This document shows, piece after piece, positions 2,752-35,355 of a stretch of 64,000 nucleotides of DNA. Position 1 is the first letter of the stretch, and every line of letters begins with the position of its first letter. The notes beneath the pieces are model-generated. The model had not been told where the DNA came from. It saw nothing but the letters and a program-made list of their open reading frames with translations, and made no database searches. The DNA lies in IMG/VR virus record IMGVR_UViG_3300026521_000088, positions 32,551-96,550 of that record; one strand, 5' to 3'. A program made the translations under genes and the position numbers. Origin of the DNA: a virus (taxonomy: Duplodnaviria; Heunggongvirae; Uroviricota; Caudoviricetes).

Positions 2752-3978
2752 TTAATATCTTACATCCCAACCTCTGTCTTCTAATGTATCAGCATTATCT
2801 TTACCGTCATCACTAGGTTCTTCTTTATTGTCTTCTAAGTACACACTACCATCTTCTATACCACTATCAACTAAAGCTTGTAATATGTTATCTAGTGCTT
2901 CTTGATCTAAATTGTTTTCATTAAAATTTATATATGTAAGTTTTTCTATTTTATCTAAACCTAATGGTTCTTCATAACAACTACATCTCAAACAATCTAA
3001 ATACTCAAGATTCACCATAGTATCACCAAAATCTAATTGATGGTCTACATAATGTTGTCCACAAATATCTATATGTGTAAGTTTAGGTAAATCTTTTAAT
3101 CCATTAACATTTGATAAACCTCCTTCATAATGTCCAGGTCCCCATATTCTACTAACATCAACATACTCTAACTCAGTTAAACTACTTAAATTATCTAAAT
3201 CACCTATCAAACCATCGTTGTGAGCAAGGTCTATATATTTTAATTTTTTACAATTATGCAAATCAGCTATTCTACCATCTAAAAAAGTAAATGGTAATTT
3301 TAATACTTCTAAATTAGGACAATCTATAAATTTACCGTATAAAGTACCACCATTAAAACCACCACCATACCAAGCACCTCTTGATTGTATATATCTTAAA
3401 TTAGGCATATTATTAAAGTAATAATCTAGTTTAGTCCTAATATGTGTACCCTCTACATTTAAGTATTCTAGTTTATGCATATTTTGCAAACAAGTAACAG
3501 GTCCTGTTATAGGTGTATCGTATAGACTTAATGTTTTTAAATTTACAAGATTTTTTAAATTATCAAAAGAATCTGTAAAACTATCATTTAAATCACTTAA
3601 TGTTAAATGTTCTAAAGTAGTACACATACTAATATTAGCTAAACCAGAACTAAACCCAGCATGTTTAAAATATAACTTTTTTAATTTAGTAAAATATGTT
3701 AATCTAGGTAATGGGCTATTAGGAATATCATTACCATTTTTATCTACAGGTCTTATCCATACCCCACCATTTACACCTATTTCAGTAAACTCTGTACCTT
3801 CTATAAAATTTAATTTATTAACACCAAATTTGAATGTGAATGGTGTACCTGTTTCTACATATTCATCATTAATGTACATGAATTTAGTATCACCTTCAAA
3901 TTGTTGTATTGGGTCACTTAATGTATTACCCAAAAACCAATACCACATAACAGGGAATGGGAATTTTTTACTATACAT
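2752..3978 (-). CDS. leucine-rich repeat (LRR) protein
   Basis: Repeated L-x-x-L-x-L-x-x-N/T units (e.g. LEHLTLSDLNDSFTDSFDNLKNLVNLKTLSLYDTPITG..., LEYLNVEGTHIRT..., LKYIDLAHNDGLIGDLDNLSSLTELEYVDVS), typical of BspA/internalin-type LRR folds. Confidence 0.6.
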   Translation of the reverse strand: MYSKKFPFPVMWYWFLGNTLSDPIQQFEGDTKFMYINDEYVETGTPFTFKFGVNKLNFIEGTEFTEIGVNGGVWIRPVDKNGNDIPNSPLPRLTYFTKLKKLYFKHAGFSSGLANISMCTTLEHLTLSDLNDSFTDSFDNLKNLVNLKTLSLYDTPITGPVTCLQNMHKLEYLNVEGTHIRTKLDYYFNNMPNLRYIQSRGAWYGGGFNGGTLYGKFIDCPNLEVLKLPFTFLDGRIADLHNCKKLKYIDLAHNDGLIGDLDNLSSLTELEYVDVSRIWGPGHYEGGLSNVNGLKDLPKLTHIDICGQHYVDHQLDFGDTMVNLEYLDCLRCSCYEEPLGLDKIEKLTYINFNENNLDQEALDNILQALVDSGIEDGSVYLEDNKEEPSDDGKDNADTLEDRGWDVRY

Positions 3979-4476: not shown

Positions 4477-4835
4477 AAAAAAGAACCTATTTTAAAAGGT
4501 CTAAAGTTATATACTTCTCTACCTTTACTATCTATATGTTTTATAGGTTTATCATAAGGATATACAGATTTATACTTATTTAACTTACTTTTATGTTTTT
4601 TTAGTCTTATGGTATAATATGTACCTAAATCTTTTAACATTTTATATTTTTTTAAATCTAATTTTAATACTCTTGCTAAAGTTAGTGATTTATTACCATT
4701 TTTTTTGATAGGTGTTAATATACATCCTGTACAAAAAGATTTGGTTTCTTCATTATAGTGACCATCTTTTATTAATTGTTTTTTTAAGGCTTTTAAATCA
4801 GAACAATATATTATTCTATCATTGTATTTTTTCAT
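4473..4835 (-). CDS. hypothetical basic protein
   Basis: 120-aa ORF, Lys-rich, overlaps neighbours by 4 nt in an operon-like array. Confidence 0.4.
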   Translation of the reverse strand: MKKYNDRIIYCSDLKALKKQLIKDGHYNEETKSFCTGCILTPIKKNGNKSLTLARVLKLDLKKYKMLKDLGTYYTIRLKKHKSKLNKYKSVYPYDKPIKHIDSKGREVYNFRPFKIGSFL

Positions 4836-10230: not shown

Positions 10231-10683
10231 TTATCTATTAATTAAAACAACACCAGATTGGTTGTCTTCATCTTGATCATATAAATAACCATATTGTTCT
10301 AATTTTTCAATATAAGATTCAATTTCTTGATTATATTTTCTAATTATATCTTTAGCTAATTCTTCATGATATTGTGTTTTAAGTGTACTTACAAAACTAC
10401 ATACATACCTAGCTATAGCTGGAACTAAACTTTCATCTATATCTAACTCATCTTCATCAGTTTCTGGTAAATTAGGGAAACGAATAAATTGATTCTCTGT
10501 TATTTGTCTAGCAATTCTCCAACCAAATGGTGTTAAAACAGTTAAATGTACAGAGTCTGCTTCCATAGCTACTTTATTATAAGCATATTCTAGTAAACCT
10601 AGTAATTCATCATTATCTTCTGTAAGAGTTACATCTTGAATTAATAAGGCACTAACTAAACTTTTAAATCTTTTATAGGTCAT
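10231..10683 (-). CDS. hypothetical structural protein
   Basis: 150-aa acidic ORF directly upstream of the fibre gene. Confidence 0.45.
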   Translation of the reverse strand: MTYKRFKSLVSALLIQDVTLTEDNDELLGLLEYAYNKVAMEADSVHLTVLTPFGWRIARQITENQFIRFPNLPETDEDELDIDESLVPAIARYVCSFVSTLKTQYHEELAKDIIRKYNQEIESYIEKLEQYGYLYDQDEDNQSGVVLINR

Positions 10684-11497: not shown

Positions 11498-14488
11498 TTA
11501 CTCACTATAACTATCATAAGCTGTAGACTCTGTATCATCATCTATAATACCCCAGATATACTCATTCATAGGACTATTTCTTTTAGCTTTTTTAACTGCT
11601 TCAGCATTTTCAAATTCTTTAGCAGGATATATAATATCTATCATATTTATTTGAGAAATTAAATCTAATCCATCATCATGTTTAGAACCTATACTTGTAT
11701 ATGATGTATACTTAATCTCTTCCATAAGTTCTCTCATATCTGGAGTATCTTTTAAAGCTTCATTAAACCATATCTTTCTATTTTGAAATAATGGTAACAT
11801 TTGTCTAAATCTCCAATGTTTATTACCACCTTCAAGTCTACTCCTAATACCTTCAGAACCTATCTTAGCTCCTTTTTGTCTAGCAAAACTAAAGAATGTA
11901 TTTCTATCTACCATCATTTGTTTTAAAGAGTATATATGAATATTTTGTTGTCCATCTACTTCAACACCTACATCTACCCATCTAGCATTACCAAATACAC
12001 TTTCAACCATTTTAAAAGTTGTTCTATATTGTTCTTCTAACTCCATTTTCTTTAATGTTAAATCTACTAAAAATATATCACCACTACTAGCTACTGCCCA
12101 TAATGCTGCACCACTAAAATCACTACCTTTACTACCTGTACTTGTATAATCTGTAGTTAAATACCAATTGTATTGACTAGCTCTAGCTTTTATTTTAGCT
12201 GTGTCTATAAATTGTATTAAAGACTCTGGTACTAACCTATCTTCTTCATTACTAATTCTTAGCATTAATTCTTGATTAAATTCCCTTATAGAATTAGTCC
12301 CTAAAGCATCTTCATATCTTTCTTTAACTCTTTCGTAAGAATGCATAGGTTCCCAAGCTCCTACAAACTCTTTCTTAGTTATATTGTCATCTATCTTTTC
12401 ACACATAGGTATACAAACTGGTGTCCAAGTACCAGATTCTAATGCTTGGTATACTGGATCATTTTTATTAAATGGTGTATTAATTGCTATAATTTTACCT
12501 TTCTTACCACCTAAAGCATTTTCAGCATCAGCATACATCATAGACTTAAGTTTTTTCATAATAATTTTAGAATTAGCATCAGCCTCATTCTTAATAATAT
12601 CATCAAAAATAATACAGTTTTTAGATATACCAAATAGTGTACTATAAGCATGGTTTTCCCCAATTACTTTTTCAATATCCCTATTATTACACTGTATAGG
12701 TATTAAGTCTAGGTCTTTTGTTTCCTCTACACTTTTTACTTGTCTCCATAACATACCATTCTCTATATGTACTTGTTTAAACTTTACCTTTGTACTGGCC
12801 GATACATCAATATTCAGTATTTGCTTTACATTTTCTACCAATCTTAGTTCCCATTGATGGTTAATATTGTGTTCTTTGTTAGTTGAATTAAATACTTGTA
12901 CACCACTTCTTTTTGTATTGCGTATATAAGTAGGTAGTCCTAAACGACTAGAAATGACTTGTAGTTGTTTTAATACATTTAAATTAACACTATTTATCCT
13001 TACCTGTTGACTAACTTTCTTATTATCTATATATCCATCAGCAGCTATGTAACCAAGTAATAAATTTTTTTGCTTATTTAAGGTTATACGCATTACCCAA
13101 TCTGGCATATTTTTAATACTATTTCCACTTTTTTGGGACTTCAACCAATTTGACATGTCTGTATCGGATGTAACAATATTATAACAACCTGAACCAAACC
13201 TCTGGATACTATACTTTTTACCAAGACTATCTAGTATACTACATACTTTTTTACCAATAGTTTTCTCTTGGGTATTTGCTATAGTGTAAATTATATTACT
13301 ATTAGATATAGTCCCATCACCTAACCACAAACCATAAAGCCACCACCAATCATCGTTATCAAACTCAGTAAACTGAATCTTTTCTAACTTACTTATTTTC
13401 CTAGTTTTAAGAATCCTACCTTTAGAATCTCTAGCTATGATTTCATCATAGTATTTAACACATTCTACCAATGGAGGGTTGATTTCAGTATAATCAATCA
13501 TTGACCCAATCCAATGTCTATTTGTTAACTTGCTAGCTTCTTCCCAGCAAGCTTCATATTCAATATAATTTTTTACTAATTTTTTACTAGTTCTACACCA
13601 TACTTGGTCATTGGTACACTTTTTAGCCCAGTATTTGTGGTCTTTGCTAACAAATTCTGATTCTGTCAAACCTCTTACTTTAATTTCATACCCATTTTCA
13701 ATAAACCCTTCAGCCTTGATGGGGTGTTCTTCTATAGGATATGTACCGTACTCTGTTGTAACAATAGTCCCTCTTACATGACATTGAGGTCTTTCTGTTT
13801 TATATCTAATACCCCTTACAGAACCTCCAGCAGCACCTTTAACTTTATACATAAATGACCTAGATTTTATAGACTTATTTTCACCAGGTAGTTGCTTTCT
13901 TAAGAACTCACATTCTTCATCTGTAAATCTCATTTTTTCAAAATATTCTTTACAAAATAATGAATCCTCACATATATCTCTAATAGTATTAGCTTGAACT
14001 TTAGCTCCAGCTTGTTGTGAATCACCAAACCCTACTACAAACATAACATCACCAAAATTAGGCATCTTACCTTTTATTGCCAAGTATATAGGTAAAAATG
14101 CTGTAATAACTGTACTTTTAGCTAAACCTCTAGAACACATAATAGCTATTTTTCTATTATTAATTCTAATACTATCTTGAATTTCTTTTGAATATGGGTA
14201 TTGATGTCTTTTAATATTACCAAATACTAAGTCTACTAAAAAGTAATGCATCAAAGAGTTTTCCACTTCAAAGTCTTGTCCTTGTACTAATCGCATTAAA
14301 CTAAAAAATTCTATAGCATCTCTGCTAGGTAAATACCCACCAAATTTTAAATCCATATTATTTAGTGCTTCATCAATATTAAATTTATATTTTTTATTAG
14401 GTACTAACTGCACATCAGGCAAATCTTCTATATCGTTAGCGTTTTCTAAATACTCTTCCCACTCTTTACTTATTTTTTTATTACTCAC
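11498..14488 (-). CDS. terL: terminase large subunit interrupted by an in-frame intein with LAGLIDADG homing endonuclease
   Basis: N-extein has terminase Walker A-like MCSRGLAKST; the sequence resumes as CIIFDDIIKNE (Walker B hhhhDD) after a 389-aa insert beginning with Cys (RPQ|CHVRGTIV...) and ending ...ISKN|C; insert carries two LAGLIDADG motifs (WLYGLWLGDGTIS and LLLGYIAADGYID). C-terminal part is nuclease-domain sized. Confidence 0.85.
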   Translation of the reverse strand: MSNKKISKEWEEYLENANDIEDLPDVQLVPNKKYKFNIDEALNNMDLKFGGYLPSRDAIEFFSLMRLVQGQDFEVENSLMHYFLVDLVFGNIKRHQYPYSKEIQDSIRINNRKIAIMCSRGLAKSTVITAFLPIYLAIKGKMPNFGDVMFVVGFGDSQQAGAKVQANTIRDICEDSLFCKEYFEKMRFTDEECEFLRKQLPGENKSIKSRSFMYKVKGAAGGSVRGIRYKTERPQCHVRGTIVTTEYGTYPIEEHPIKAEGFIENGYEIKVRGLTESEFVSKDHKYWAKKCTNDQVWCRTSKKLVKNYIEYEACWEEASKLTNRHWIGSMIDYTEINPPLVECVKYYDEIIARDSKGRILKTRKISKLEKIQFTEFDNDDWWWLYGLWLGDGTISNSNIIYTIANTQEKTIGKKVCSILDSLGKKYSIQRFGSGCYNIVTSDTDMSNWLKSQKSGNSIKNMPDWVMRITLNKQKNLLLGYIAADGYIDNKKVSQQVRINSVNLNVLKQLQVISSRLGLPTYIRNTKRSGVQVFNSTNKEHNINHQWELRLVENVKQILNIDVSASTKVKFKQVHIENGMLWRQVKSVEETKDLDLIPIQCNNRDIEKVIGENHAYSTLFGISKNCIIFDDIIKNEADANSKIIMKKLKSMMYADAENALGGKKGKIIAINTPFNKNDPVYQALESGTWTPVCIPMCEKIDDNITKKEFVGAWEPMHSYERVKERYEDALGTNSIREFNQELMLRISNEEDRLVPESLIQFIDTAKIKARASQYNWYLTTDYTSTGSKGSDFSGAALWAVASSGDIFLVDLTLKKMELEEQYRTTFKMVESVFGNARWVDVGVEVDGQQNIHIYSLKQMMVDRNTFFSFARQKGAKIGSEGIRSRLEGGNKHWRFRQMLPLFQNRKIWFNEALKDTPDMRELMEEIKYTSYTSIGSKHDDGLDLISQINMIDIIYPAKEFENAEAVKKAKRNSPMNEYIWGIIDDDTESTAYDSYSE
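12617..13783 (-). mobile_element. intein (aa 236-624 of TerL) with double-motif LAGLIDADG homing endonuclease domain
   Basis: Boundaries inferred from Cys1 (C236) and C-extein Cys (C625) flanking ...SKN; LAGLIDADG blocks present; insertion immediately upstream of terminase Walker B. Confidence 0.7.
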
Positions 14489-21136: not shown

Positions 21137-21139
21137 AGA

Positions 21140-21194
21140 CTTAAGTAGGTGACCTGTATAGGTTACTTGCTTAAGTTATTTTTTTTTTTTTTTT
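21140..21194 (+). terminator. rho-independent terminator after the RNAP gene
   Basis: Imperfect hairpin (cttaagtaggtgacc ... ggttacttgcttaag) followed by a 16-nt T run (21179-21194); a second T13 run at 21265-21277. Confidence 0.6.
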
Positions 21195-22745
21195 GATTTT
21201 AATGAACTAACTTTTTAAGAAGCCAAGTAATAACTAAAGTATCTTTTATAAGGTATTTTAGTTATTTTTTTTTTTTAAATTAATAAACATAGTGGATAGT
21301 ATTTATTAAGATATTAGATATTTATTACTTTTTATTATAAGAAAAAACTTATTGATAAAGAGAGTAAGTAAAATAGATACTAAATAAAAAGGATATGTAA
21401 TAATACAACTGACAAAAAAACTATCAAATACATTACTTGTAGAAAGTTTGTGTGGAGATGGTAATAATATAACTTTACTATGGGTTAAACCTGCTAACTT
21501 ATTTACTACACCACACGATGAACTATTAAATATTAATAGTATGTTATTATTAAATTTAGAAGCATTAATATATAATAAATAAAAGGATATATATGATTCA
21601 ATTAATGAAATTTCAAAATAAAGATTCAAATAATGCAATTAGTAGGAGTAATATAGGCTACTGTAATTATATAACTTCATTGTGGTTTATGGTTATTCTT
21701 CCAGATATTAAATCTATTAATGCTTCTAAAAGAATGTTAGTACATCTAGATGGGTTAATAATGGATAATATAAATGAAAAGGTATATATATATGACACAA
21801 ATACTAAAGACTAAAGGTGGAACAAGTACAAGAATTCAAATTACTAGAACAACTACACCTATATGTGTAACATCATTATGGTATGCATCTCAAACTTTAT
21901 TTAGTAAAAATAGGTTTGATGGTAACATTAGACTACTGATAGATTTAGAAAGATTAGTAATAAAAACTTATAAAGGTGTACTTAATGATTCAATTATTAG
22001 AAAGATATAAAAATGTATCTTATGGGTTAGTTTCATATAATAGATATTTTTCAAGAGTATCTATTATTATAACAAAATTTTCTAGATTTAATGCTAATAA
22101 TACTCTTATAGTATGTTTAAATGATATAGATGTATATGCTAATTTAAAGGATAAAAATGATTAACTTAATTAGATATAACAGTGGGGTTATAGCATACGG
22201 TAATTATTACGATAAACATATAACTTTTTTATGTATAGTCGGTATATGGGAAATAAGTATAAATAAAAATTTGTTAAAAAATTTAGATGAACTAATGCTA
22301 ATAAAATAAGGATTTCTATGTTACAAATAATGAAGATAAAAAATAATGTAAGATTAAATTGGTTAGGTTATAGCTTATATTGTATAACAGATTTACCATA
22401 TTTATCAAATATACAGTTAATTAACACACCTTATGGTAGTAATAATAGGGGTTTATCAACACTTATTAATATGTATACTTTTAAAACATGTAAGGATTAA
22501 AAAATTATGACTCAAGTACTTAAAAGACATGTTACAGATTATAAGTTACATTATTCTAGTATTTTCATAGTAAATAATCATATTTTATCAAAATACTGGT
22601 TTTTCTTAACTGATTGTAGAAAAATAAATCAAAATATATTAGTTAAGTTAGGTTGTAGCAATATAAAAATTTAAGGATATATTAGAAAATCTATTAATAT
22701 TTAGATTTGCTAAATAAATAAGATATATAAAATAAAGGAATTAAA

Positions 22746-24945: not shown

Positions 24946-25338
24946 ATGGAAAAATTATATATAAAAGCAACAAGAAATAAGTAGAGATTTCAAACAACAA
25001 GAGAACATATATCAGTAGAAGAGTTATGGGATTTACCACTTAAATCAAGAACAAACTTTGATTTAGATACAGTAGCAAAAACTGTAAATAAACAAGTAAA
25101 AAAAACTGAAGAAGAATCTTTTGTTACAACTACAGCAAAAGATACAGAACCAAAAGAGAAACTTGAATTTGTTAAATATATCATTTCAGTCAAGCTACAA
25201 GAAGCTAAAGACAAACAAGATGCACAAGCAAAAGCTGGAAGAAAACAACAAATTCTAGCGTTATTAGCTGAAAAAGAAGTAGAAGGACTTAAAGCAAAAT
25301 CAAAAGAAGAGTTGCTTAAAGAGTTAGAATCTTTATAA
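24946..25338 (+). CDS. 130-codon reading frame interrupted by a single in-frame TAG at codon 13 (24982-24984): pseudogene or amber read-through/recoded gene
   Basis: ATG with AAAAGGA SD; after the TAG the same frame stays open for 117 more codons with no ATG and ends in a coiled-coil-like KE-rich tail; only a spurious minus ORF is called across it. Confidence 0.4.
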
Positions 25339-25428
25339 GTAACTTAAATTCATATCCGTTACCATTTTACTACTATGTTTTAAAATGGTAATAATATAAA
25401 TTAAAGTAGATTACTAAGGAGTTAGTAA

Positions 25429-25767
25429 ATGCAAGGTTTATGGAAAGATAAAACTAAGCACTATTTAAAGTCTAAGTTAAAATACTATATAAGAGATAAT
25501 AAAATTTTATATGGTAAAGATTTAGATATTGTACATAATAATGATGTATGTGTTAAAGTTTTAAATAGTATTAAACAAGATAGCTTTGTATGTATAAAAA
25601 ATAAAATAGTTAAATTATCTTCTAATCTAATATATAGACATTCTAAAAAATGTATTTATGACTTAGAGTATGAAGATATTTTTATAAATAGTACATTTAA
25701 TAAAATAGGTAGTAAAAATATATACTCTGATAAAGAGTTAATAGAATTTAAATATAAGGATAAATGA
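25429..25767 (+). CDS. hypothetical protein
   Basis: 112-aa Lys-rich ORF with AAGGAG SD. Confidence 0.5.
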   Translation: MQGLWKDKTKHYLKSKLKYYIRDNKILYGKDLDIVHNNDVCVKVLNSIKQDSFVCIKNKIVKLSSNLIYRHSKKCIYDLEYEDIFINSTFNKIGSKNIYSDKELIEFKYKDK

Positions 25768-25876
25768 TGTGTAATATCAGAACAAGAAAAAATGATGTAA
25801 AACTAACAATCAAACAAGCACAACAAGCACTGAAGATAGCAAAGTCTTTAAATAAAGAGTTATATATACTAAGATA

Positions 25877-25896
25877 TTAACCTTATTTAAGGTTAA
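25877..25896 (+). terminator. hairpin (ttaacctta-tt-taaggttaa) upstream of tRNA cluster
   Basis: Perfect 9-bp inverted repeat seen in sequence; weak T tract after it. Confidence 0.35.
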
Positions 25897-25933
25897 TCTT
25901 GTATAATTAGATTTATATAACATATCAATATAT

Positions 25934-26019
25934 GCTGCTATGGTGGAAAGGTAGACACTGAAGGCTTAAAACCTTCTGACTGAAAAGTCGTCCCAGTTCG
26001 AATCTGGGTAGCAGTACCA
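25934..26019 (+). tRNA. tRNA-Leu (anticodon TAA), type II with long variable arm, CCA encoded
   Basis: Acceptor GCTGCTA/TAGCAGT, anticodon arm GAAGG-CTTAAAA-CCTTC, variable stem-loop, T arm CCCAG-TTCGAAT-CTGGG, then ACCA. Confidence 0.8.
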
Positions 26020-26021
26020 AA

Positions 26022-26095
26022 TCTCCAATAGCTTGAAGGTCAAGCAAATGACTGTTAATCATTAGTTGTAGGTTCGATTCCTACTTGGAGAGCCA
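26022..26095 (+). tRNA. tRNA-Asn (anticodon GTT), CCA encoded
   Basis: Acceptor TCTCCAA/TTGGAGA, D arm GCTT-GAAGGTC-AAGC, anticodon arm AATGA-CTGTTAA-TCATT, T arm GTAGG-TTCGATT-CCTAC, then GCCA. Confidence 0.8.
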
Positions 26096-26164
26096 ATATA
26101 TAATTATAATAACTAACTATTAGCTATTAAATATAGGTTAAAACTTATATAGTTAACCATTTAT

Positions 26165-26240
26165 GTTGTACTGCTACCTGGGGTAGATATAGTAATATAT
26201 AGATAGTAATATCTTATAGGTTCGAATCCTATGTACAACA
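26165..26240 (+). other. tRNA-like element / degenerate tRNA (acceptor stem and T arm intact, anticodon region replaced by an ATAGTAATAT tandem duplication)
   Basis: GTTGTAC...GTACAAC acceptor pairing and ATAGG-TTCGAAT-CCTAT T arm are perfect, but no canonical anticodon stem can be drawn; 10-nt direct repeat inside. Confidence 0.3.
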
Positions 26241-26667
26241 CCTCCTACAAATAAGTAGTAAAGTTTATAGTAGAAAATTTTTAACATACCTATTTCCTTT
26301 TAAAGTATGTATTTTCATTTTCCTTCCCTTTTTAAATTTTAACTGACAAACTATAATTCTACTATAAACCTACTACTTATTATTTTTAATAAACCAATAT
26401 TTATATTGATTTATTAAAAATAATAATATACATATATACAAGGATTTACTATGTTACAAGTACTTAATCATAAGTATACATTTGCAAGAACAACTACTAA
26501 AGGATATTATGTAAAATATTATATATTTTCTTTTATACATTTTAGAAAACAACTACATCTACTACATATACGCAATTATAATAGTATAAAAACATTAGAT
26601 GAGACTCTATTATCTTTAATATAGACTATAAAATATTATAAATAATTATAATAAATAAAGGAAAATA

Positions 26668-26850
26668 ATGATACAGATAATTGAAAGTACTAAAATACAT
26701 ACTGATACTCTTAGTAGGTTAGACACTAGTCATATTGTGAAAAACATAGTTGATTTTTATATTAGACAAATGCCATATAACAATAATGGAATTATACTAT
26801 TACAACTTACTGCATTAATAGTAGAGGTTACAGATGATACAGAATGTTAA
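26668..26850 (+). CDS. small protein, MIQ paralog family
   Basis: AAATAAAGGAAAATA-ATGATACAG start; ~60 aa; shares MIQ...DFY...LL pattern with neighbours. Confidence 0.5.
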   Translation: MIQIIESTKIHTDTLSRLDTSHIVKNIVDFYIRQMPYNNNGIILLQLTALIVEVTDDTEC

Positions 26851-27031
26851 TACAATATATTCTAAAATGTATGATCCTAGAAACAAGTATAAATTACATT
26901 ATAGTCAGGATACTGAGGATTTTTTTATTAATTGGTACTTATCTTCACAACTTTTAGATAGTAATAGTAGTATTTTATATAAACTAACAGAATATCTACT
27001 AGACTATACACAACAAAATAAAGGAAAATAA
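26834..27031 (+). CDS. small protein, MIQ paralog family
   Basis: MIQNVN... with ...TEDFFINWYL core; overlaps neighbours. Confidence 0.5.
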   Translation: MIQNVNTIYSKMYDPRNKYKLHYSQDTEDFFINWYLSSQLLDSNSSILYKLTEYLLDYTQQNKGK

Positions 27032-27219
27032 TGATACAAAATATAGCTGCTAATACTAAACTTATTCATAAATTTATATCTAAACCACATATTATAAAAA
27101 GTACCTCTGATAATGATTTTTATATACCCAATCTATTATCTGGTACACATACAAGAATACTAGCAGGTATTGTTATGTTAGTAATAAAGGGTGCTGATGT
27201 TGCAAAATATAAGACATAA
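27031..27219 (+). CDS. small protein, MIQ paralog family
   Basis: AAATAAAGGAAAATA-ATGATACAA start; ...NDFYIPNLL core. Confidence 0.5.
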   Translation: MIQNIAANTKLIHKFISKPHIIKSTSDNDFYIPNLLSGTHTRILAGIVMLVIKGADVAKYKT

Positions 27220-27388
27220 TATTAGTAAGAACTTAATAGGTGTAAGATTAGTACTTGATCAAGATAAAAATATTTATATTACTAAAAATATTTTTTATAC
27301 TCAAGTATATATAAAAAATAAAATAAGTAAAGTATGTACTAAACTTTTGAGAAATACAGTCTACCTACTTTATAAAAATACTAAATAA
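27191..27388 (+). CDS. small basic protein
   Basis: 65-aa ORF in the same tight array. Confidence 0.35.
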   Translation: MLMLQNIRHNISKNLIGVRLVLDQDKNIYITKNIFYTQVYIKNKISKVCTKLLRNTVYLLYKNTK

Positions 27389-27406
27389 ACAAATAAAGGA
27401 AAAAAT

Positions 27407-28633
27407 ATGAAAAATGTACTAGATTTAATAAAAGAAGATATGATTTCACCAAAATATAAAAATGCTGATGATGTAATGGATATGGTTATTACTCAAGAGA
27501 CAGATACACTGTTAAATCCAGCATATAATAAAGAGTATAGTAAATTCTTAGATACTCTTAAAGAAGACTTTAAAAAAGACATTAAATTGAACTTTAGTGA
27601 GTCATATGGTCTAGATACACCATTAGAGTTTATAGGAACAGGTGGTGTAGGAGCAAACCTATTATATATGTTAGAACACCATAGAAATTTCACTGAAGAT
27701 AATAATGGTGAAAAATTCTATATACCAAACTCATTCTTTGAATTTGACCATTGGGACTTTAGCAATTTAGCTAGAATACCATTTATACCAGAAAAATATC
27801 GTAAAGGTGAAGATATTGTAGCTAAAGAACTTGCTAACCATGATGCTAAAGAAGAGCAATTTCTAGACCCATTATTTATTGAGGCTAGCCATAATAAGCT
27901 ATCGAAAATAATTCCTTGTGGAGCTATGGATTTAGAAACTAGAAAAGTAATGACTACTGCTAAAATACCATACATCACAGTTACACACAAAGATGATAAG
28001 CTACAAATTAAATTATGTCCTACACCTGTAGAACATGAGTCTTTAATGGCTGAAACATATGGTATGATTGATGTAAACTTCTTGTTACCAGCAGTACATC
28101 TAGCTTCATTCTATATCTCAGATATTATGAATGCTGCAAATACTGATAAAACAGAAGGTTACAATATATCTGCAGTTAAAGCTTATGAGGATATTAAAGT
28201 CTTCAAAGCTGAAATGTTGAAGTATAGAGAGTTAACTATAGCTAATGAAGCTAATAGTAACAATGATATTTTACAAAGTTTTATCTTGTATTGTGCAGAT
28301 ATTGTAAAAGATAGAACTAACTATAATTTAGAAGATACAGATGAGTTACAAAAATTTAGAGTAGAAATTTACACTGAAGTAACTAGAAGACTTTCTAATG
28401 CTGAAGACTTAGAAGCAATGGTCAATAGTTCAAAAGAATCATTTAATCATCTAGGTGGTAAAGAGTATGTATGTACAAGAGCCAAAGAATTGCTAGATCT
28501 AGACACCTTATGGAGTGGTATGGAAGATAGAGTATTACTAGAAATTACACCAGATGATGTAAGAGACTTTCTAGAAGTCAAAAATACAAAGGAAGCTTAT
28601 GAACTTGTTAGAAGACTTTCATCCAATAATTAA
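27407..28633 (+). CDS. E1-like adenylyltransferase (ThiF/MoeB/HesA family)
   Basis: Rossmann nucleotide-binding motif LEFIGTGGVGANLLYML followed by FEFDHWDFSNLARI (cf. ThiF/MoeB VLVVGAGGLGS ... LIDFDVVELSNLNRQ). Confidence 0.7.
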   Translation: MKNVLDLIKEDMISPKYKNADDVMDMVITQETDTLLNPAYNKEYSKFLDTLKEDFKKDIKLNFSESYGLDTPLEFIGTGGVGANLLYMLEHHRNFTEDNNGEKFYIPNSFFEFDHWDFSNLARIPFIPEKYRKGEDIVAKELANHDAKEEQFLDPLFIEASHNKLSKIIPCGAMDLETRKVMTTAKIPYITVTHKDDKLQIKLCPTPVEHESLMAETYGMIDVNFLLPAVHLASFYISDIMNAANTDKTEGYNISAVKAYEDIKVFKAEMLKYRELTIANEANSNNDILQSFILYCADIVKDRTNYNLEDTDELQKFRVEIYTEVTRRLSNAEDLEAMVNSSKESFNHLGGKEYVCTRAKELLDLDTLWSGMEDRVLLEITPDDVRDFLEVKNTKEAYELVRRLSSNN

Positions 28634-29222
28634 AGAATTAGTAGTATATAAAGATATTACTAAATTCTTTAAAAAAACTAGAGAGATTAGAATAAATTAC
28701 ATAACTGCTATATGTGATAATATAGCAGTACCTATTTATTACTATTCAGAGGAACAATGGGGTTCTAGAGCTTATATTGATTATACTATGAAACTGGATA
28801 CAATTAGAGATTTAGATAAATCTATTATAGATTGTAAAATAAAAGAGTTGCAAGAGTTAGGGTTAAATATAACAAGTATTTCATTAACAGATAATCTACA
28901 CACTCATCCAGTAGGTTGTACTAGTTTTTCACCTACAGATTATAATGGTTGTTTAAAACCTGACTATACAGAGAATAGCTTAGGTACTAATATGTTATTT
29001 TCATTTACTGGAGAGCTTTATAAAACTATTGTGAGAGAACAAATAAATGGTGAGTATAAGTATTATAAAGTTAAACAAATAGAAGTAGATGACTTTATAC
29101 CACATATAGATATTAAAGAGGAGCATTTTAAAACTAAAGCATTAACATACCTTACTGTAAATTTAATGAAACAAAAGATAAAGAAAAAACTACATAAATC
29201 AAAAATTAAGCATAAAAGATAA
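28599..29222 (+). CDS. JAB/JAMM (MPN+) metalloprotease-fold protein
   Basis: Exact JAMM motif H-x-H-x(7)-S-x(2)-D: HTHPVGCTSFSPTD, with an upstream Glu (SEEQW); overlaps the E1-like gene by 35 nt. Confidence 0.7.
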   Translation: MNLLEDFHPIIKELVVYKDITKFFKKTREIRINYITAICDNIAVPIYYYSEEQWGSRAYIDYTMKLDTIRDLDKSIIDCKIKELQELGLNITSISLTDNLHTHPVGCTSFSPTDYNGCLKPDYTENSLGTNMLFSFTGELYKTIVREQINGEYKYYKVKQIEVDDFIPHIDIKEEHFKTKALTYLTVNLMKQKIKKKLHKSKIKHKR

Positions 29223-29302
29223 GTGCTTCAAGCTACTATTATTTAGTAGTTTTGAGCAACTATTTTAGTTAGCAAAAAAAAAAAATACTATAAGGAAATA
29301 CA

Positions 29303-29851
29303 ATGGCAACATTAAGAGAGAGAGCAGAAGCAAAACTAAGAGAGCAAAACAAAATGGATACAACTACAACAGAAGAGGTAACAAAATTGTTTGAACAAGC
29401 TCAAGAGAGCGTTGTAAGTACTGCACAGGAAGTAAAAAAATCAGATAGTGGAGCAGATATGTCTATAGCCCAAAATGAAGTAGAGGCTATTTATGATGGT
29501 AAAGATACAGTTGAATACCCTAAAGGTATTACAGATGTGCTAAATGATGAAGATGTTAAACCAACTATAGCTATAAAAGCTATCAAAGCTTATGTAAAAG
29601 CTACTAGAAAAGCTTATAGTAAGGATAAAGTACAAGTAAAAGGTTTTAGTTTTAAAACTAGTGCATCTGAGAAGATTATGGCTATTGCTGATGAGGTAGA
29701 TAGAATCAATGAAAAACTAGAAGATTTTGACCAAAGCAATAGAGAAGTAGGTTCAAAAATCTATAACTTAGAAAAAGAAGCAGAAAGACTTGTAGCTACA
29801 AGTGCAGTATTACTTGGTCTATTGGTAAAATCTAGTAATAAATTAATCTAG
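29303..29851 (+). CDS. hypothetical coiled-coil protein with hydrophobic C-terminus
   Basis: 182 aa, no Cys; A12 tract immediately upstream (29274-29285). Confidence 0.5.
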   Translation: MATLRERAEAKLREQNKMDTTTTEEVTKLFEQAQESVVSTAQEVKKSDSGADMSIAQNEVEAIYDGKDTVEYPKGITDVLNDEDVKPTIAIKAIKAYVKATRKAYSKDKVQVKGFSFKTSASEKIMAIADEVDRINEKLEDFDQSNREVGSKIYNLEKEAERLVATSAVLLGLLVKSSNKLI

Positions 29852-29884
29852 TTACTAGCTAGTGCCTATATTTATATAGGTACT

Positions 29885-31003
29885 ATGGTATTAACAATTA
29901 AAATAAAGGGGTTAAAAATGACAAGAAATAAACAGAACGAAGCATTTATTAGAAAAGTGTTACTAGCTAAAGCTATTGAAAAAGTTGTAAAACAAGTTGA
30001 TTTTGATACAGATGTTAATGTAGAGCATTTCTCTGAAACCTACGGTATTTATGTATCTAAATTTGATAGAGATTATGTAAAATCTTTAATTGATAAAAAA
30101 GAAAATTTATCTCAAATTAAAGATATGAAAGTTACAGGTTACGATGTACAAGGATTGATTGGTCTAGCTAATTTATTAGATACTATGTCAGATAATCCTG
30201 ATTTTTATGGTTGTATTGTTCTTATTGAAAAAGCTAATCAAAAAATTCCATATAACCCATTGTCTGAGTCTTTTATGAAAAAACTAACATCTGGTGTTAT
30301 TAAAATCAATGATGATACAAAACTAAAAGTTTTTATTTATTCTATCAACGGTGAAGTAGATAACGATGTAGCTTTACAAACTGTAGATATGTTATCTAAA
30401 ATTTCTGTAATTAATGCAGAGACTGTTCAAATTGAAAAACCAGATGATGAAGAAGAGGTTAAAACTTTATGGTTAAAAGCACCTGTAGCTTGGGATACTA
30501 ACAACAGCCAGAACTCGGTTGTTAATAATGGTACATTAGAAGACATTCACTTAGATCAATTACATAAATCTATTACATTTACTGCTTCAAATAGAATTGA
30601 TTATAAAGATTTGTTAGCTTATGATATTGATATGCTATTAAACAGTGAAATTGAAGACAATTCTAATTCCATTATTAAGAGAATGTTAGATAACAATTGG
30701 ATGATTGAATTATCTGTTATTGATATTGGTGGTATGATTGTACCAGCATATGGTTTTTTTGAACATAAAGATAATGCTATGTATGATATTTTATGTGCTA
30801 CAAGACACCCAAATATTTCAAATGACGGGTCTAACTACTGTACTGGTGCTAACGGAAGAACTACCCTGAAGGGTATTTCAGAATTAAGTTATGGTAACCT
30901 AACATCACCACTCAATAGTAACATTTGGTCAAAAAATAGCTTATCTATAGCTAAAGGGTTTGTAGCTTATTATACTGAGAAATTTTTAAATCTAGAAGTA
31001 TAA
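29885..31003 (+). CDS. hypothetical protein
   Basis: 372-aa ORF, no recognisable motif. Confidence 0.5.
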   Translation: MVLTIKIKGLKMTRNKQNEAFIRKVLLAKAIEKVVKQVDFDTDVNVEHFSETYGIYVSKFDRDYVKSLIDKKENLSQIKDMKVTGYDVQGLIGLANLLDTMSDNPDFYGCIVLIEKANQKIPYNPLSESFMKKLTSGVIKINDDTKLKVFIYSINGEVDNDVALQTVDMLSKISVINAETVQIEKPDDEEEVKTLWLKAPVAWDTNNSQNSVVNNGTLEDIHLDQLHKSITFTASNRIDYKDLLAYDIDMLLNSEIEDNSNSIIKRMLDNNWMIELSVIDIGGMIVPAYGFFEHKDNAMYDILCATRHPNISNDGSNYCTGANGRTTLKGISELSYGNLTSPLNSNIWSKNSLSIAKGFVAYYTEKFLNLEV

Positions 31004-31012
31004 AGGTAACTT

Positions 31013-31258
31013 ATGATAACAACACAATATTTGTATGATTGTAACCCAGAGGATTTTAAAGATTTACCTTATAAGGATGCTATAAAATATAAGTATAACC
31101 AAGCTAAGATGCTTGGTTATAGACTATACAAAGAGTTGATACTTAAAAATGATAACACTAAAGAGAGTTATTTAAATAATACTGAACTAAGAAAAAGATT
31201 GTATATGGTAAATAAAGCTGAAAAACATAATAGAATCCTACTGGATGAATTAAATTAA
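31013..31258 (+). CDS. hypothetical small protein
   Basis: 81-aa ORF. Confidence 0.45.
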   Translation: MITTQYLYDCNPEDFKDLPYKDAIKYKYNQAKMLGYRLYKELILKNDNTKESYLNNTELRKRLYMVNKAEKHNRILLDELN

Positions 31259-31267
31259 AGAATTAGA

Positions 31268-31477
31268 ATGAAATATAATAAAGTAAGTATTATAACCGAG
31301 ATAGCAGTAGTATGTATGTACCTTGTGATAATAATTGGTATAGGTTATGGGTATATTAATAATATTATCCAAAAAGTACATTCAGAACTTGAGCCATTAA
31401 CGACTCAAGTTGTTATAGGTATAGGTGGAATATTTGTACCACCTATTGGTGTTCTTATGGGGCTTTTTGTCTGGTAA
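31268..31477 (+). CDS. small 2-TM membrane protein (possible partner of the SPFH protein)
   Basis: 69 aa, two hydrophobic helices. Confidence 0.45.
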   Translation: MKYNKVSIITEIAVVCMYLVIIIGIGYGYINNIIQKVHSELEPLTTQVVIGIGGIFVPPIGVLMGLFVW

Positions 31478-31519
31478 TAGCTAAATAAATTCAAAAAAAA
31501 AAAAAATAAAAGATAAACA

Positions 31520-32488: not shown

Positions 32489-32948
32489 ATAGGACTTCAG
32501 TCCTATATATTTTTTAAAGTATTATATATAAATATTTTTAAAAATATACAGGAGTTAGGTAATGGTGCAGGTAGTAAAGAAATATAAGAAAGATTGTTAT
32601 ATTTTGGATTATTCAAATTTATGTATGTCTACAGATAGTTTAGATGTAAACCTATGTTTACTGTATGAGATAGATGAGTTAACATATATACCATAATATA
32701 ATATAAGTTATAAATATTTTATACTAATGTAATGACTTATTATTAAAAACAATATAAATCTAGATAAGAGGGGTATAAATGATACAATTAGTTAATATGT
32801 ATTATACAGAAATAGAAGGTAGTCCTAAAATAAAAGTACATAAATGGAATTACTTATATGCTGGTTCATCATCATTAAATAACAGTATTAATACAGAGTT
32901 GTTATATAGGATAAATTACTTAAAACTACATACATAAAGGTAAGCATT

Positions 32949-33161
32949 ATGATTCAACTAATAAATTTAACAACAGAAGATTTAACTTGTGATGATTTTA
33001 CATATAAAGCTTATATAGATAAACTACATAGGTCTTTAATACATACAAAGTATAAAGATTTTTATACTAATGCTCCATTACTAACACTAAACAATAATAT
33101 ACATTATGAAATTTTATATTTATTTTGTGCTAAATTAACAAATTCTATAGAAAAGTATTAA
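32949..33161 (+). CDS. small protein, MIQ paralog family
   Basis: MIQLINL...KDFYTNAPLL; a further unlisted member (MIQLVNMYY..., ~52 aa) starts at 32779. Confidence 0.45.
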   Translation: MIQLINLTTEDLTCDDFTYKAYIDKLHRSLIHTKYKDFYTNAPLLTLNNNIHYEILYLFCAKLTNSIEKY

Positions 33162-33257
33162 AAATGGTAACATTTATAGCTAATGTAAATAAATTAGGTA
33201 TATAAATACTAATGCATATATACTATATAGTATGTTTTTTAAATACAAAGGAAAATT

Positions 33258-33443
33258 ATGGTAAATAATATAAAACTAAGTACTAATAAATCATATGTAC
33301 ATTTATATTCGGTTAAAAAAAGACTAATAATATATTTACCAAAATTTACCTTATCTGGTATAAATAGGGTAATTTTATTAGAGATAGGTGTATTATTTAA
33401 TAACTTAGAGGGTACAAATGATACAAGTAATAAAATTATATAG
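33258..33443 (+). CDS. small hypothetical protein
   Basis: 61-aa ORF with AAAGGAAAAT SD. Confidence 0.35.
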   Translation: MVNNIKLSTNKSYVHLYSVKKRLIIYLPKFTLSGINRVILLEIGVLFNNLEGTNDTSNKII

Positions 33444-33593
33444 AAATATTGATAAAAAAGAAATAGATATAGGCTTTAATACTTATATTGGTATACTATC
33501 TTATGTTATATTCCCTATATCAACAAATACAAATATAATAAATTATAACTTATTAACAGATAAGTTTATTTATTATACTTATAAAGGTAATTT

Positions 33594-33785
33594 ATGATTC
33601 AACAAACATATCATATTAATAAGTCATATTCATCAAAACTTGTTAAATATAGTTATTATAGTTATTATAATAATAATATAAACATATCTTATTATATTTA
33701 TAAAGAAGTAATTAAAACAGAGTGTAATATAAATGATAATATCCTATTTTTTATAGGTATGTTACTTCGTAAAGTTACACATTAA
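33594..33785 (+). CDS. small protein, MIQ-start, Tyr/Asn-rich
   Basis: MIQQTY...; low complexity, so uncertain. Confidence 0.3.
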   Translation: MIQQTYHINKSYSSKLVKYSYYSYYNNNINISYYIYKEVIKTECNINDNILFFIGMLLRKVTH

Positions 33786-34242
33786 ATTAAAGTATATATA
33801 ACTTTAATCAATTATAAGGAGGTTAGTATGAAACTGATGACATAAACATACATATATATCTATATATATAAGGTAGATTACACACTTTATACATTACATT
33901 TGGTAGACTTTTATGTCTACCGAAAATATATAATAAAGCTTACAAAGGTAGGTTTTTAATATATTTTAAAGAATTAAGATGAATTACATTTTTAGTTATA
34001 TACTAATAACTTTGTTTATAGTCTTAGTATATATGTACAATAATCATATAAATACTATTAGTATGTATAGATATGAAGTTGTATATGATATTAATGAAGT
34101 AGCATATACTAATAATTCTGTAGATGTACATAATTGTATATGTACTACTGAAGGAAATATTTGTGGTAATTTTAGGGTATATCATAACCCATTTTTCAAG
34201 TAAAACATACAACTAATTAAAGTCTGAAATAAAGGATAAATA

Positions 34243-34482
34243 ATGATACTTATAGACAGAATATATATAGAAGATCGATTTATAGAACAGGAATTTAATG
34301 TGATAACTAATTGGAAATTTATGAGGTATAAATCATTAAGTTATATGTATATTAAATATAAACGATTACTGTATATGTACTATAAATATAATAAAAATTA
34401 TAATATAGATTTCGATAGACTTATACAAGTTAATGGCGTAAGTTTTTATAATGTATATAGGGTAACAAATGAAAATAGGTAA
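34243..34482 (+). CDS. small hypothetical protein
   Basis: AAATAAAGGATAAATA-ATGATAC start motif. Confidence 0.35.
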   Translation: MILIDRIYIEDRFIEQEFNVITNWKFMRYKSLSYMYIKYKRLLYMYYKYNKNYNIDFDRLIQVNGVSFYNVYRVTNENR

Positions 34483-34819
34483 TATTGTAGGAGTAATGGA
34501 AATAGGGAATGGTTTTACCACTGAGTGTATAAAAGGTATAGATGGTGCGTACCATTTTACAACATCTCGAGATGGTGTTTTTGTACACCATTTTTATAAC
34601 TATATGACATTAGATAATGCTGTAAGTTACCTGGAAAAACGCTTGTTCTTAAAAGATATTGTAATTTTACAATTTAATGATGGTAGTTATACTACTACTA
34701 AATTAAAAAATAAAATGATTTTCCCAGAAAGGTTTATGAGAAGTAAACCTATAAGGTATTGGGTATTTGATGATATTACTAAAGAAAATATGGAAAATAT
34801 TAGAGTTATATTAAACTAA
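34469..34819 (+). CDS. hypothetical protein
   Basis: 116-aa ORF. Confidence 0.45.
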   Translation: MKIGNIVGVMEIGNGFTTECIKGIDGAYHFTTSRDGVFVHHFYNYMTLDNAVSYLEKRLFLKDIVILQFNDGSYTTTKLKNKMIFPERFMRSKPIRYWVFDDITKENMENIRVILN

Positions 34820-34830
34820 AAGTAGATAAG

Positions 34831-35322
34831 ATAATTTACTTCACAAGTGACTTACATATACATCATAAAAATATATGTAAATATAGAACAAAATTTAAAA
34901 CAACAGAAGAACACGACAACTATTGGATAGATAAAATACTTAGTTTAGGTAAAATAGATATTTTATATATATTAGGGGATTTTATATTTGATACAAATGA
35001 GGAAACATTTAATAAAACAATAAATAAATTAAAGAATATCAAATGTAGAATTAAGTTGATAATGGGTAATCATGACTCCTTAAAGTTATATAAAATAAAT
35101 AATCCTAAAATAGAGATGCAATTACCACTATTTACATATAAAGATTTTTGGTTATCTCATTGTCCTATACACCCACAAAAGATGAGAACCAGATAGGGTA
35201 ACATTCATGGACATTTACATGATGTTATTTTAGATGATAAATTATATTTTGATGTATCCCCAGAAAAGCATAACTATAAATTTGTGTCATTGAATGATAT
35301 AAAGGAATATTATAATAAATAG
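34831..35322 (+). pseudogene. calcineurin-like metallophosphoesterase lacking a canonical start codon and carrying one in-frame TAG (35194-35196)
   Basis: Frame reads KIIYFTSDLHIHH (motif I D-x-H) ... ILGDFIFD (GD-x-x-D) ... LIMGNHD (GNH[DE]) ... TAG ... GNIHGHLHD (GH-x-H); no ATG/GTG/TTG at the domain start; frame is -1 relative to the upstream 34469..34819 ORF. Confidence 0.5.
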
Positions 35323-35355
35323 ATCAAAATATATTAAAATAAAAAAGGAAGTAAA

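Follow-up and report, generated by a model that had tools for sequence, protein, structure and literature searches.

Members of PHROG 547, small metallophosphoesterases of the calcineurin-like type (Pfam PF00149), appear in GenBank phages under the names phosphoesterase or putative Ser/Thr phosphatase, for example in Salmonella phage 7-11 and Vibrio phage 1.133.O. All of the intact homologues that we aligned (n = 26) are stand-alone proteins of 157–189 aa. The closest solved structure to the protein described here is aq_1665 of Aquifex aeolicus (PDB 1xm7), which was found by profile search at E 5e-8 over query residues 1–131; this is a distant similarity that reflects the common metallophosphoesterase core. 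PdeM and SbcD resemble the protein more weakly than aq_1665 does, and because the score against the NCBIfam PdeM model (41 bits) is far under its cut-off of 150, we rejected membership in the PdeM/SbcD group. Other known systems are relevant to the way in which this gene is interrupted and to its putative start codon. Recoded crAss-like and Lak phages, which translate TAG into an amino acid, have many in-frame TAGs, mostly in late genes, together with a suppressor tRNA of their own, and they avoid TAG as a terminator. AUA and AUU are near-cognate start codons permitted by translation table 11.

The gene lies in a stretch of 64,000 nucleotides (the window) from a large tailed phage. The window has a GC content of 26–27% and is densely coding under the standard code. 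Its large-scale arrangement is as follows.

Up to ~16.6 kb, minus strand: structural and packaging module.
Plus strand: early and replication region with RNA ligase, NAMPT, AAA ATPases, helicases, DNA polymerase and primase.

No cultured phage is close to this one: the DNA polymerase shares 28% identity with that of Alteromonas phage AD45, and a megablast search with the 4.5 kb around the phosphoesterase gave no match among GenBank phages. Near-identical copies were also absent from IMG/VR (queried by protein and with two DNA patterns) and from GTDB genomes, and neither flanking protein had an exact match.

Several other features of the window were observed. The large terminase subunit is encoded by an ORF of 996 aa with a GTG start (11498–14488, minus strand); the PHROG terminase profiles cover only residues 616–966 of this ORF and leave the N-terminal ~600 residues without explanation. 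A segment of ~1.6 kb at 21137–22745 has 19–25% GC; the ORFs on its coding strand are all short and unconvincing, and it gave no Rfam match at E ≤ 1. Genes for tRNA-Leu(taa) and tRNA-Asn(gtt) are adjacent at 25934–26095 (plus strand), and both read A/T-rich codons, which fits the AT bias of the genome. In the related loci L005 and L007, a gene of PHROG 2018 directly abuts a Band_7 gene. In the window, ~6 kb (25339–31514) that include the two tRNAs are inserted between these genes, and a further ~2.9 kb (32492–35353), the phosphoesterase included, follow the Band_7 gene and are not in the L005/L007 arrangement. The order of the small genes after the Band_7 region also differs between the window and L005/L007. 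The segment at 32489–34468 is very AT-rich (~22% GC) and has only small ORFs of 59–79 aa that are rich in N, I, Y and K; these could be small genes or more decayed genes.

The phosphoesterase frame, the ORF that precedes it and the motifs that are listed by position are given here.

34469..34819, plus strand: upstream 116-aa ORF with a TAA stop, unrelated to the phosphoesterase cassette.
34831..35322, plus strand: disrupted metallophosphoesterase gene (PHROG 547 / PF00149), 163 codons and a terminal TAG, assigned from profiles and homologues.
34849..34857, plus strand: motif I, D-L-H (DxH), with the invariant D16 and H18 of the 26-homologue alignment.
34975..34980, plus strand: motif II, G-D.
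35065..35076, plus strand: motif III, G-N-H-D.
35209..35220, plus strand: motif V, G-H-L-H, 3' of the premature TAG.

The frame from 34831 reads IIYFTSDLHIHHKN...LGDFIFD...GNHD...SHCPIHPQKMRTR, then the premature stop, then GNIHGHLHD...EYYNK and the terminal stop (TAG, 35320–35322). The metal-binding motifs DxH, GD, GNH(D/E), H and GHxH are therefore all in one frame; the H motif between GNHD and GHLH is SHCPIH, and GHLH comes after the TAG. The frame passes the curated threshold of Pfam PF00149 (E 1.9e-7, 32.2 bits with a cut-off of 21.5) and matches the PHROG 547 phosphoesterase profile over residues 1–163, its full length, at E 1.4e-44. Database searches gave 284 homologues at E ≤ 1e-10, the top one at 82% identity, and tblastn against GenBank phages gave 1644 records that match the phosphoesterase. 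Judged by these scores, the match is far beyond chance, and the gene would be a new, degraded member of the known family PHROG 547 / PF00149.

The nearest protein (P0001; 82% aa and 88% nt identity) is on an ENA contig, L001, where the gene has an ATG and an AAAGG Shine–Dalgarno (SD) sequence. L001 has an in-frame TGA (863–865) at a column that is 98% Arg, three codons before the position of the window TAG, and the gene caller had translated this TGA as Trp. An intact orthologue, P0123 (169 aa, 82% identity), with an ATG and with Arg119, is on JGI contig Ga0256828_1000987 (L002). Across the gene, L002 and L001 are identical except for one base (AGA versus TGA). They seem to represent a single phage recovered in both an ENA assembly and a JGI metagenome, and the TGA in L001 may be a nonsense polymorphism or may come from faulty assembly. 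Two other contigs, L003 (JGI, 3532–3534) and L004 (an independent ENA assembly, 696–698), form a second sister lineage with ATA in place of ATG; apart from this, both retain an intact ORF, the SD and the conserved residues. In L003 there is also a frameshift at ~4530–4545 in an 81-aa gene that lies two genes downstream and is intact in L001 (1275–1520).

Similarity between the window and these sister contigs at the DNA level (88%) is confined to 34818–35319, which is the gene itself, and the genes that flank the phosphoesterase are unrelated. Because the similarity ends at the gene borders and the flanks are unrelated, we consider the gene to be an exchangeable accessory cassette. The 116-aa ORF upstream of it in the window had no Pfam or PHROG match. 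In the relatives the upstream gene is a different one, a 113-aa ORF that resembles a membrane protein and is unrelated to the 116-aa ORF, and the ATG or ATA of the phosphoesterase comes three bases past the stop of that gene. Pairwise distances make the window an outgroup to the pair formed by L001/L002 and L003/L004, so the two ATA states need two events, which would be either two losses or a loss and a reversion. The cassette appears to break repeatedly, with separate lesions in the sister contigs.

In the window copy, we identified the following changes.

34818..34830, plus strand: degraded ribosome-binding region, AAAAGTAGATAAG, without GG, where relatives have AAAAAGGTAAATA; DNA homology to the relatives also has its 5' end here.
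34831..34833, plus strand: ATA at the initiator-Met column of the homologues (ATG in L001/L002, ATA in L003/L004).
34954..34956, plus strand: R42I, with ATA for Ile42; Arg in 93% of 119 homologues and AGA in the sister contigs; window-specific.
35179..35181, plus strand: E117K, with AAG for Lys117; Glu in 119/119 homologues and GAG in the sister contigs; window-specific.
35194..35196, plus strand: premature in-frame TAG at codon 122, which cuts off the GHxH motif.

Met1 aligned at or within one residue of the ATA in 26/26 intact homologues, where the context is M-V/N/I-Y-F-T-S-D-L-H. No ATG, GTG or TTG occurs between the in-frame upstream TAG at 34801–34803 and a TTG at 35056. There is no GG at positions –20 to –4 of the phosphoesterase start; GG is present at these positions in 52 of 56 window genes, and 51 of the 56 match the anti-SD complement over 4 nt or more. 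A promoter and terminator scan around the gene gave fewer promoter-like sites than shuffled sequences and no terminator. The column of the TAG is variable among the 26 homologues (K, Y, L, I, T, Q and others). Codon 122 is AAA (Lys) in the three sister lineages, and the TAG differs from it at two positions. Of 20 columns with 100% invariance, the window copy keeps 19 and has lost Glu117. With no canonical start that has an SD and with an interrupted ORF, this copy does not qualify as an intact gene, and comparison with the intact P0123 reveals the lesions of a pseudogene, namely a lost start, a nonsense codon and a change at an invariant residue. These results agree with the first-pass annotation of this DNA, which had described a complete phosphoesterase motif set in one frame at 34831–35322, a single in-frame TAG, the lack of ATG, GTG or TTG at the domain start and a –1 frame relative to the upstream ORF; the last of these follows from the positions (34469 mod 3 = 2; 34831 mod 3 = 1).

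As controls we used other genes of the window. In NAMPT there are no window-specific changes at the 65 columns that are at least 98% conserved, and in the ATPase the deviations at such columns are all common to its relatives. Because the control genes are without window-specific changes at conserved columns, the damage is gathered in particular genes; random error would have scattered it. L002, an intact lineage, departs from the family too, at two columns with at least 90% conservation (K17E, L76V), and missense changes alone are for this reason weak evidence of inactivation.

The Nei–Gojobori dN/dS of the phosphoesterase in the window is 0.165 versus L003 and 0.25 versus L001, the overall range of pairwise values to the sister contigs being 0.15–0.25, and the value for the window branch is ~0.23 (hand calculation by three-taxon decomposition of the pairwise values). 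Versus L003, dN/dS is 0.147 before the TAG and 0.150 after it. There is no measurable relaxation of selection on the phosphoesterase. Because dN/dS is low and equal on both sides of the TAG, inactivation, if any, is recent, and purifying selection acted through nearly all of the divergence of the gene.

Together, these data make it likely that the window carries a recently inactivated copy, a pseudogene, of a small stand-alone phage metallophosphoesterase. The cassette would move by recombination at gene borders between otherwise dissimilar AT-rich environmental phages. In the window phage, the start ATG has become ATA, the GG of the SD has been lost, Arg42 has changed to Ile and the family-invariant Glu117 to Lys, and codon 122 has become TAG, which removes the GHxH metal-binding motif. 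The start lesion and the stop lesion would each cause a strong drop in expression and jointly would leave essentially no full-length enzyme. A functional product made from ATA, without an SD and with a stop before GHxH, seems very unlikely. The lesions, the intact orthologue, the independent lesions of the sister contigs, the ordinary use of TAG as a stop and the lack of frameshift signals are direct observations; we infer that the phosphoesterase protein is not made and that its loss is tolerated since the gene is dispensable. The low dN/dS is in tension with inactivation and is compatible with a recent event only. Likewise, the ATA in both the window and L003/L004 means that the start was lost twice or that ATA was kept under purifying selection, all three of the interrupting stops that are not contradicted by a twin assembly are TAG where a share of ~0.21 is expected, and the deviations of the intact L002 also weigh against this reading. 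A decaying pseudogene was among the explanations put forward in the first-pass annotation, and it is the one favored by the lesions, by the intact orthologue and by the lesions in the sister contigs. The alignment with intact homologues that it had suggested put the ATA at the Met1 column and the TAG in a variable column, and the disruptions in related phages that it had associated with a plain pseudogene are found as the ATA in L003/L004 and the TGA in L001.

A different reading, which we regard as unlikely, is that the phosphoesterase is still expressed at a low level from an AUA start with amber read-through, the lesions being attenuators and not a knock-out. Initiation at the AUA could possibly occur by re-initiation after the TAA of the upstream ORF 11 nt away, and a suppressor tRNA for the read-through would have to come from the host or from the phage genome beyond the window. 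Initiation at AUA is ~1–2% of that at AUG in E. coli reporters (bioRxiv 10.1101/063800). The otherwise perfect ORF and SD behind the ATA in L003/L004 argue for such a start, but the SD is missing from the window copy. The dN/dS 3' of the TAG, as low as that 5' of it, is in keeping with read-through, and so are other genes interrupted by TAG, one of which is in the window.

24946-25338, plus strand: second interrupted gene, PHROG 2018, a ~130-aa family of unknown function (E 9e-37, full length).

This gene has a good ribosome-binding site (RBS) and an ATG, followed by TAG at codon 13 (24982–24984) and then by 117 open codons. Its four closest relatives (74–90% identity) have TGG (Trp) at the TAG codon. 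It also has the change G20E (GGA to GAA, 25003–25005) at a residue that is Gly in 120/120 homologues. A third TAG-interrupted gene is in L005 (ENA ERZ27262685 k141_168345), with an ATG at 10356, TAG at codon 15 (10397–10399) and a stop at 10631–10633. It has an RBS, was missed by the gene caller and has no canonical start in the 34 codons past the TAG. Matches to PHROG 8389 and to ORF043 of Pseudomonas phage KPP25 cover the C-terminal part of its product, and the length of ORF043 indicates that the segment before the TAG belongs to the L005 protein. Among these phages, ~127 kb in all contain four interrupting stops: three TAGs, one TGA that is contradicted by its twin assembly and no TAA, so that TAG makes up 3/4 of them; the shares expected from codon usage are 0.21 for TAG, 0.25 for TGA and 0.55 for TAA, and the chance of at least three TAGs among four stops is ~0.03 (hand calculation from the expected shares). 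A scan of the coding strand for long start-less 5' extensions singled out only the two TAG-bearing genes, and a further ~19 kb of relatives (L009–L011) held no more interrupted genes. ORF pairs joined by TAG at 29849 and 4847 were rejected as candidates, since they look like ordinary gene junctions with an RBS adjoining the following start.

It is because the second window gene and the L005 gene are interrupted by TAG that tolerance of amber codons keeps a small share of the probability. In the overall weighing, the TAG excess is the one argument for such tolerance. However, both of the window genes with a TAG have lost a 100%-invariant residue (E117K; G20E), which is unexpected under continued selection; relaxed constraint predicts such losses, and they therefore count against amber tolerance. 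Moreover, no tRNA(CUA) is found in the 64 kb window or in ~63 kb of related loci, TAG is the normal terminator of 10 genes, and the three TAGs differ in the next base (A, G, C) and have no common sequence context. Longer survival of leaky stops would give the same bias without a dedicated mechanism, and a simpler account is that TAG and TGA, being leaky, do less harm than TAA and so persist longer in a population. As a general claim, that amber codons and AUA starts in accessory genes of these phages are tolerated or act as expression dampers, with low-level suppression of TAG by a tRNA, we rate this as improbable. If it were true, the TAG-interrupted genes (24982, 35194 and L005 10397) and the recurrent ATA would be leaky alleles and not dead genes. 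The small TAG excess is worth a directed look if it reflects amber suppression in an uncultured host.

It is also possible, and we think quite unlikely, that the ATA and the TAG are sequencing, consensus or assembly errors, or that they come from a captured minor defective variant, and that the gene of the real phage is intact. The one-base difference that makes a TGA in one of L001 and L002, apparently the same phage, lends this some weight, as does the frameshift in a nearby gene of L003. But at least four damaging changes fall within a single gene of 490 nt while long intact ORFs persist in the other ~60 kb, NAMPT has no changes in its conserved columns, and the TAG requires changes at two positions relative to the AAA of the relatives. 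In addition, the ATA of L003 is reproduced in the independent assembly L004. Hypermutation or DNA damage was rejected as a source: over ~6 kb compared between the window and L005, transitions from GC to AT (248) and from AT to GC (241) are balanced, and there is no global G-to-A excess. Transversions in the same comparison are asymmetric, with 110 changes from A in L005 to T in the window and 58 in the reverse direction.

It is very improbable that TAG serves as a sense codon throughout the genome under an alternative code, the stop-codon recoding that had been raised at first. The support for this reading consists of the in-frame TAGs in two conserved window genes. Against this, these two are all that occur in ~19,000 codons, the structural genes have none, and coding density under the standard code is already ~91%. 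TAG terminates 10 of 72 window genes (TGA terminates 9 of 72), and at both of the TAG junctions that we read the RBS adjoins the start of the following gene. Nor was a suppressor tRNA found. ARAGORN and Rfam searches of the window and of the tRNA gap at 25300–27450 gave only tRNA-Leu(taa) and tRNA-Asn(gtt), with no CUA anticodon, and a tRNA search in the related loci L001–L008 gave no tRNA at all.

Also proposed at first was a fusion of the 116-aa ORF to the phosphoesterase domain by programmed –1 ribosomal frameshifting close to the end of that ORF. It fits the –1 frame of the phosphoesterase, which is open from 34804 and gives a 16-nt overlap window, but it is hardly credible given that no slippery heptamer (X XXY YYZ) occurs in 34780–34822, a range that takes in the last 13 codons of the upstream ORF, that the homologues are separate proteins whose start is at the ATA column, that the upstream gene of the relatives is unrelated and DNA homology starts only at 34818, and that the fusion would still end at the TAG.

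In annotation terms, the label that fits this region is disrupted phosphoesterase pseudogene; it should not be marked as recoded or as frameshifted, and the standard code is the right one for translating the genome. The locus would be a clean case of a phage accessory cassette that is exchanged at the gene borders and then knocked out again and again in sister lineages by single-base changes.

Like the recoded crAss-like and Lak phages, the window has in-frame TAG within conserved phage genes; unlike them, it has two such TAGs in 64 kb, both in the early or accessory region, no suppressor tRNA and 10 TAG terminators. As in systems that initiate at AUA or AUU, an ATA stands exactly at the ancestral start, and it recurs in L003/L004; in contrast to those systems, the window ATA is a putative start only and the SD is also gone. 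The closest likeness is to the members of PHROG 547, with which the window copy has in common all five motifs, a length of ~165 aa and its position as a stand-alone early-region gene. Identity to the members from cultured phages is only 37–40%, and the window copy differs from the family in that it lacks an ATG, GTG or TTG start and an SD, contains a premature TAG and carries E117K.
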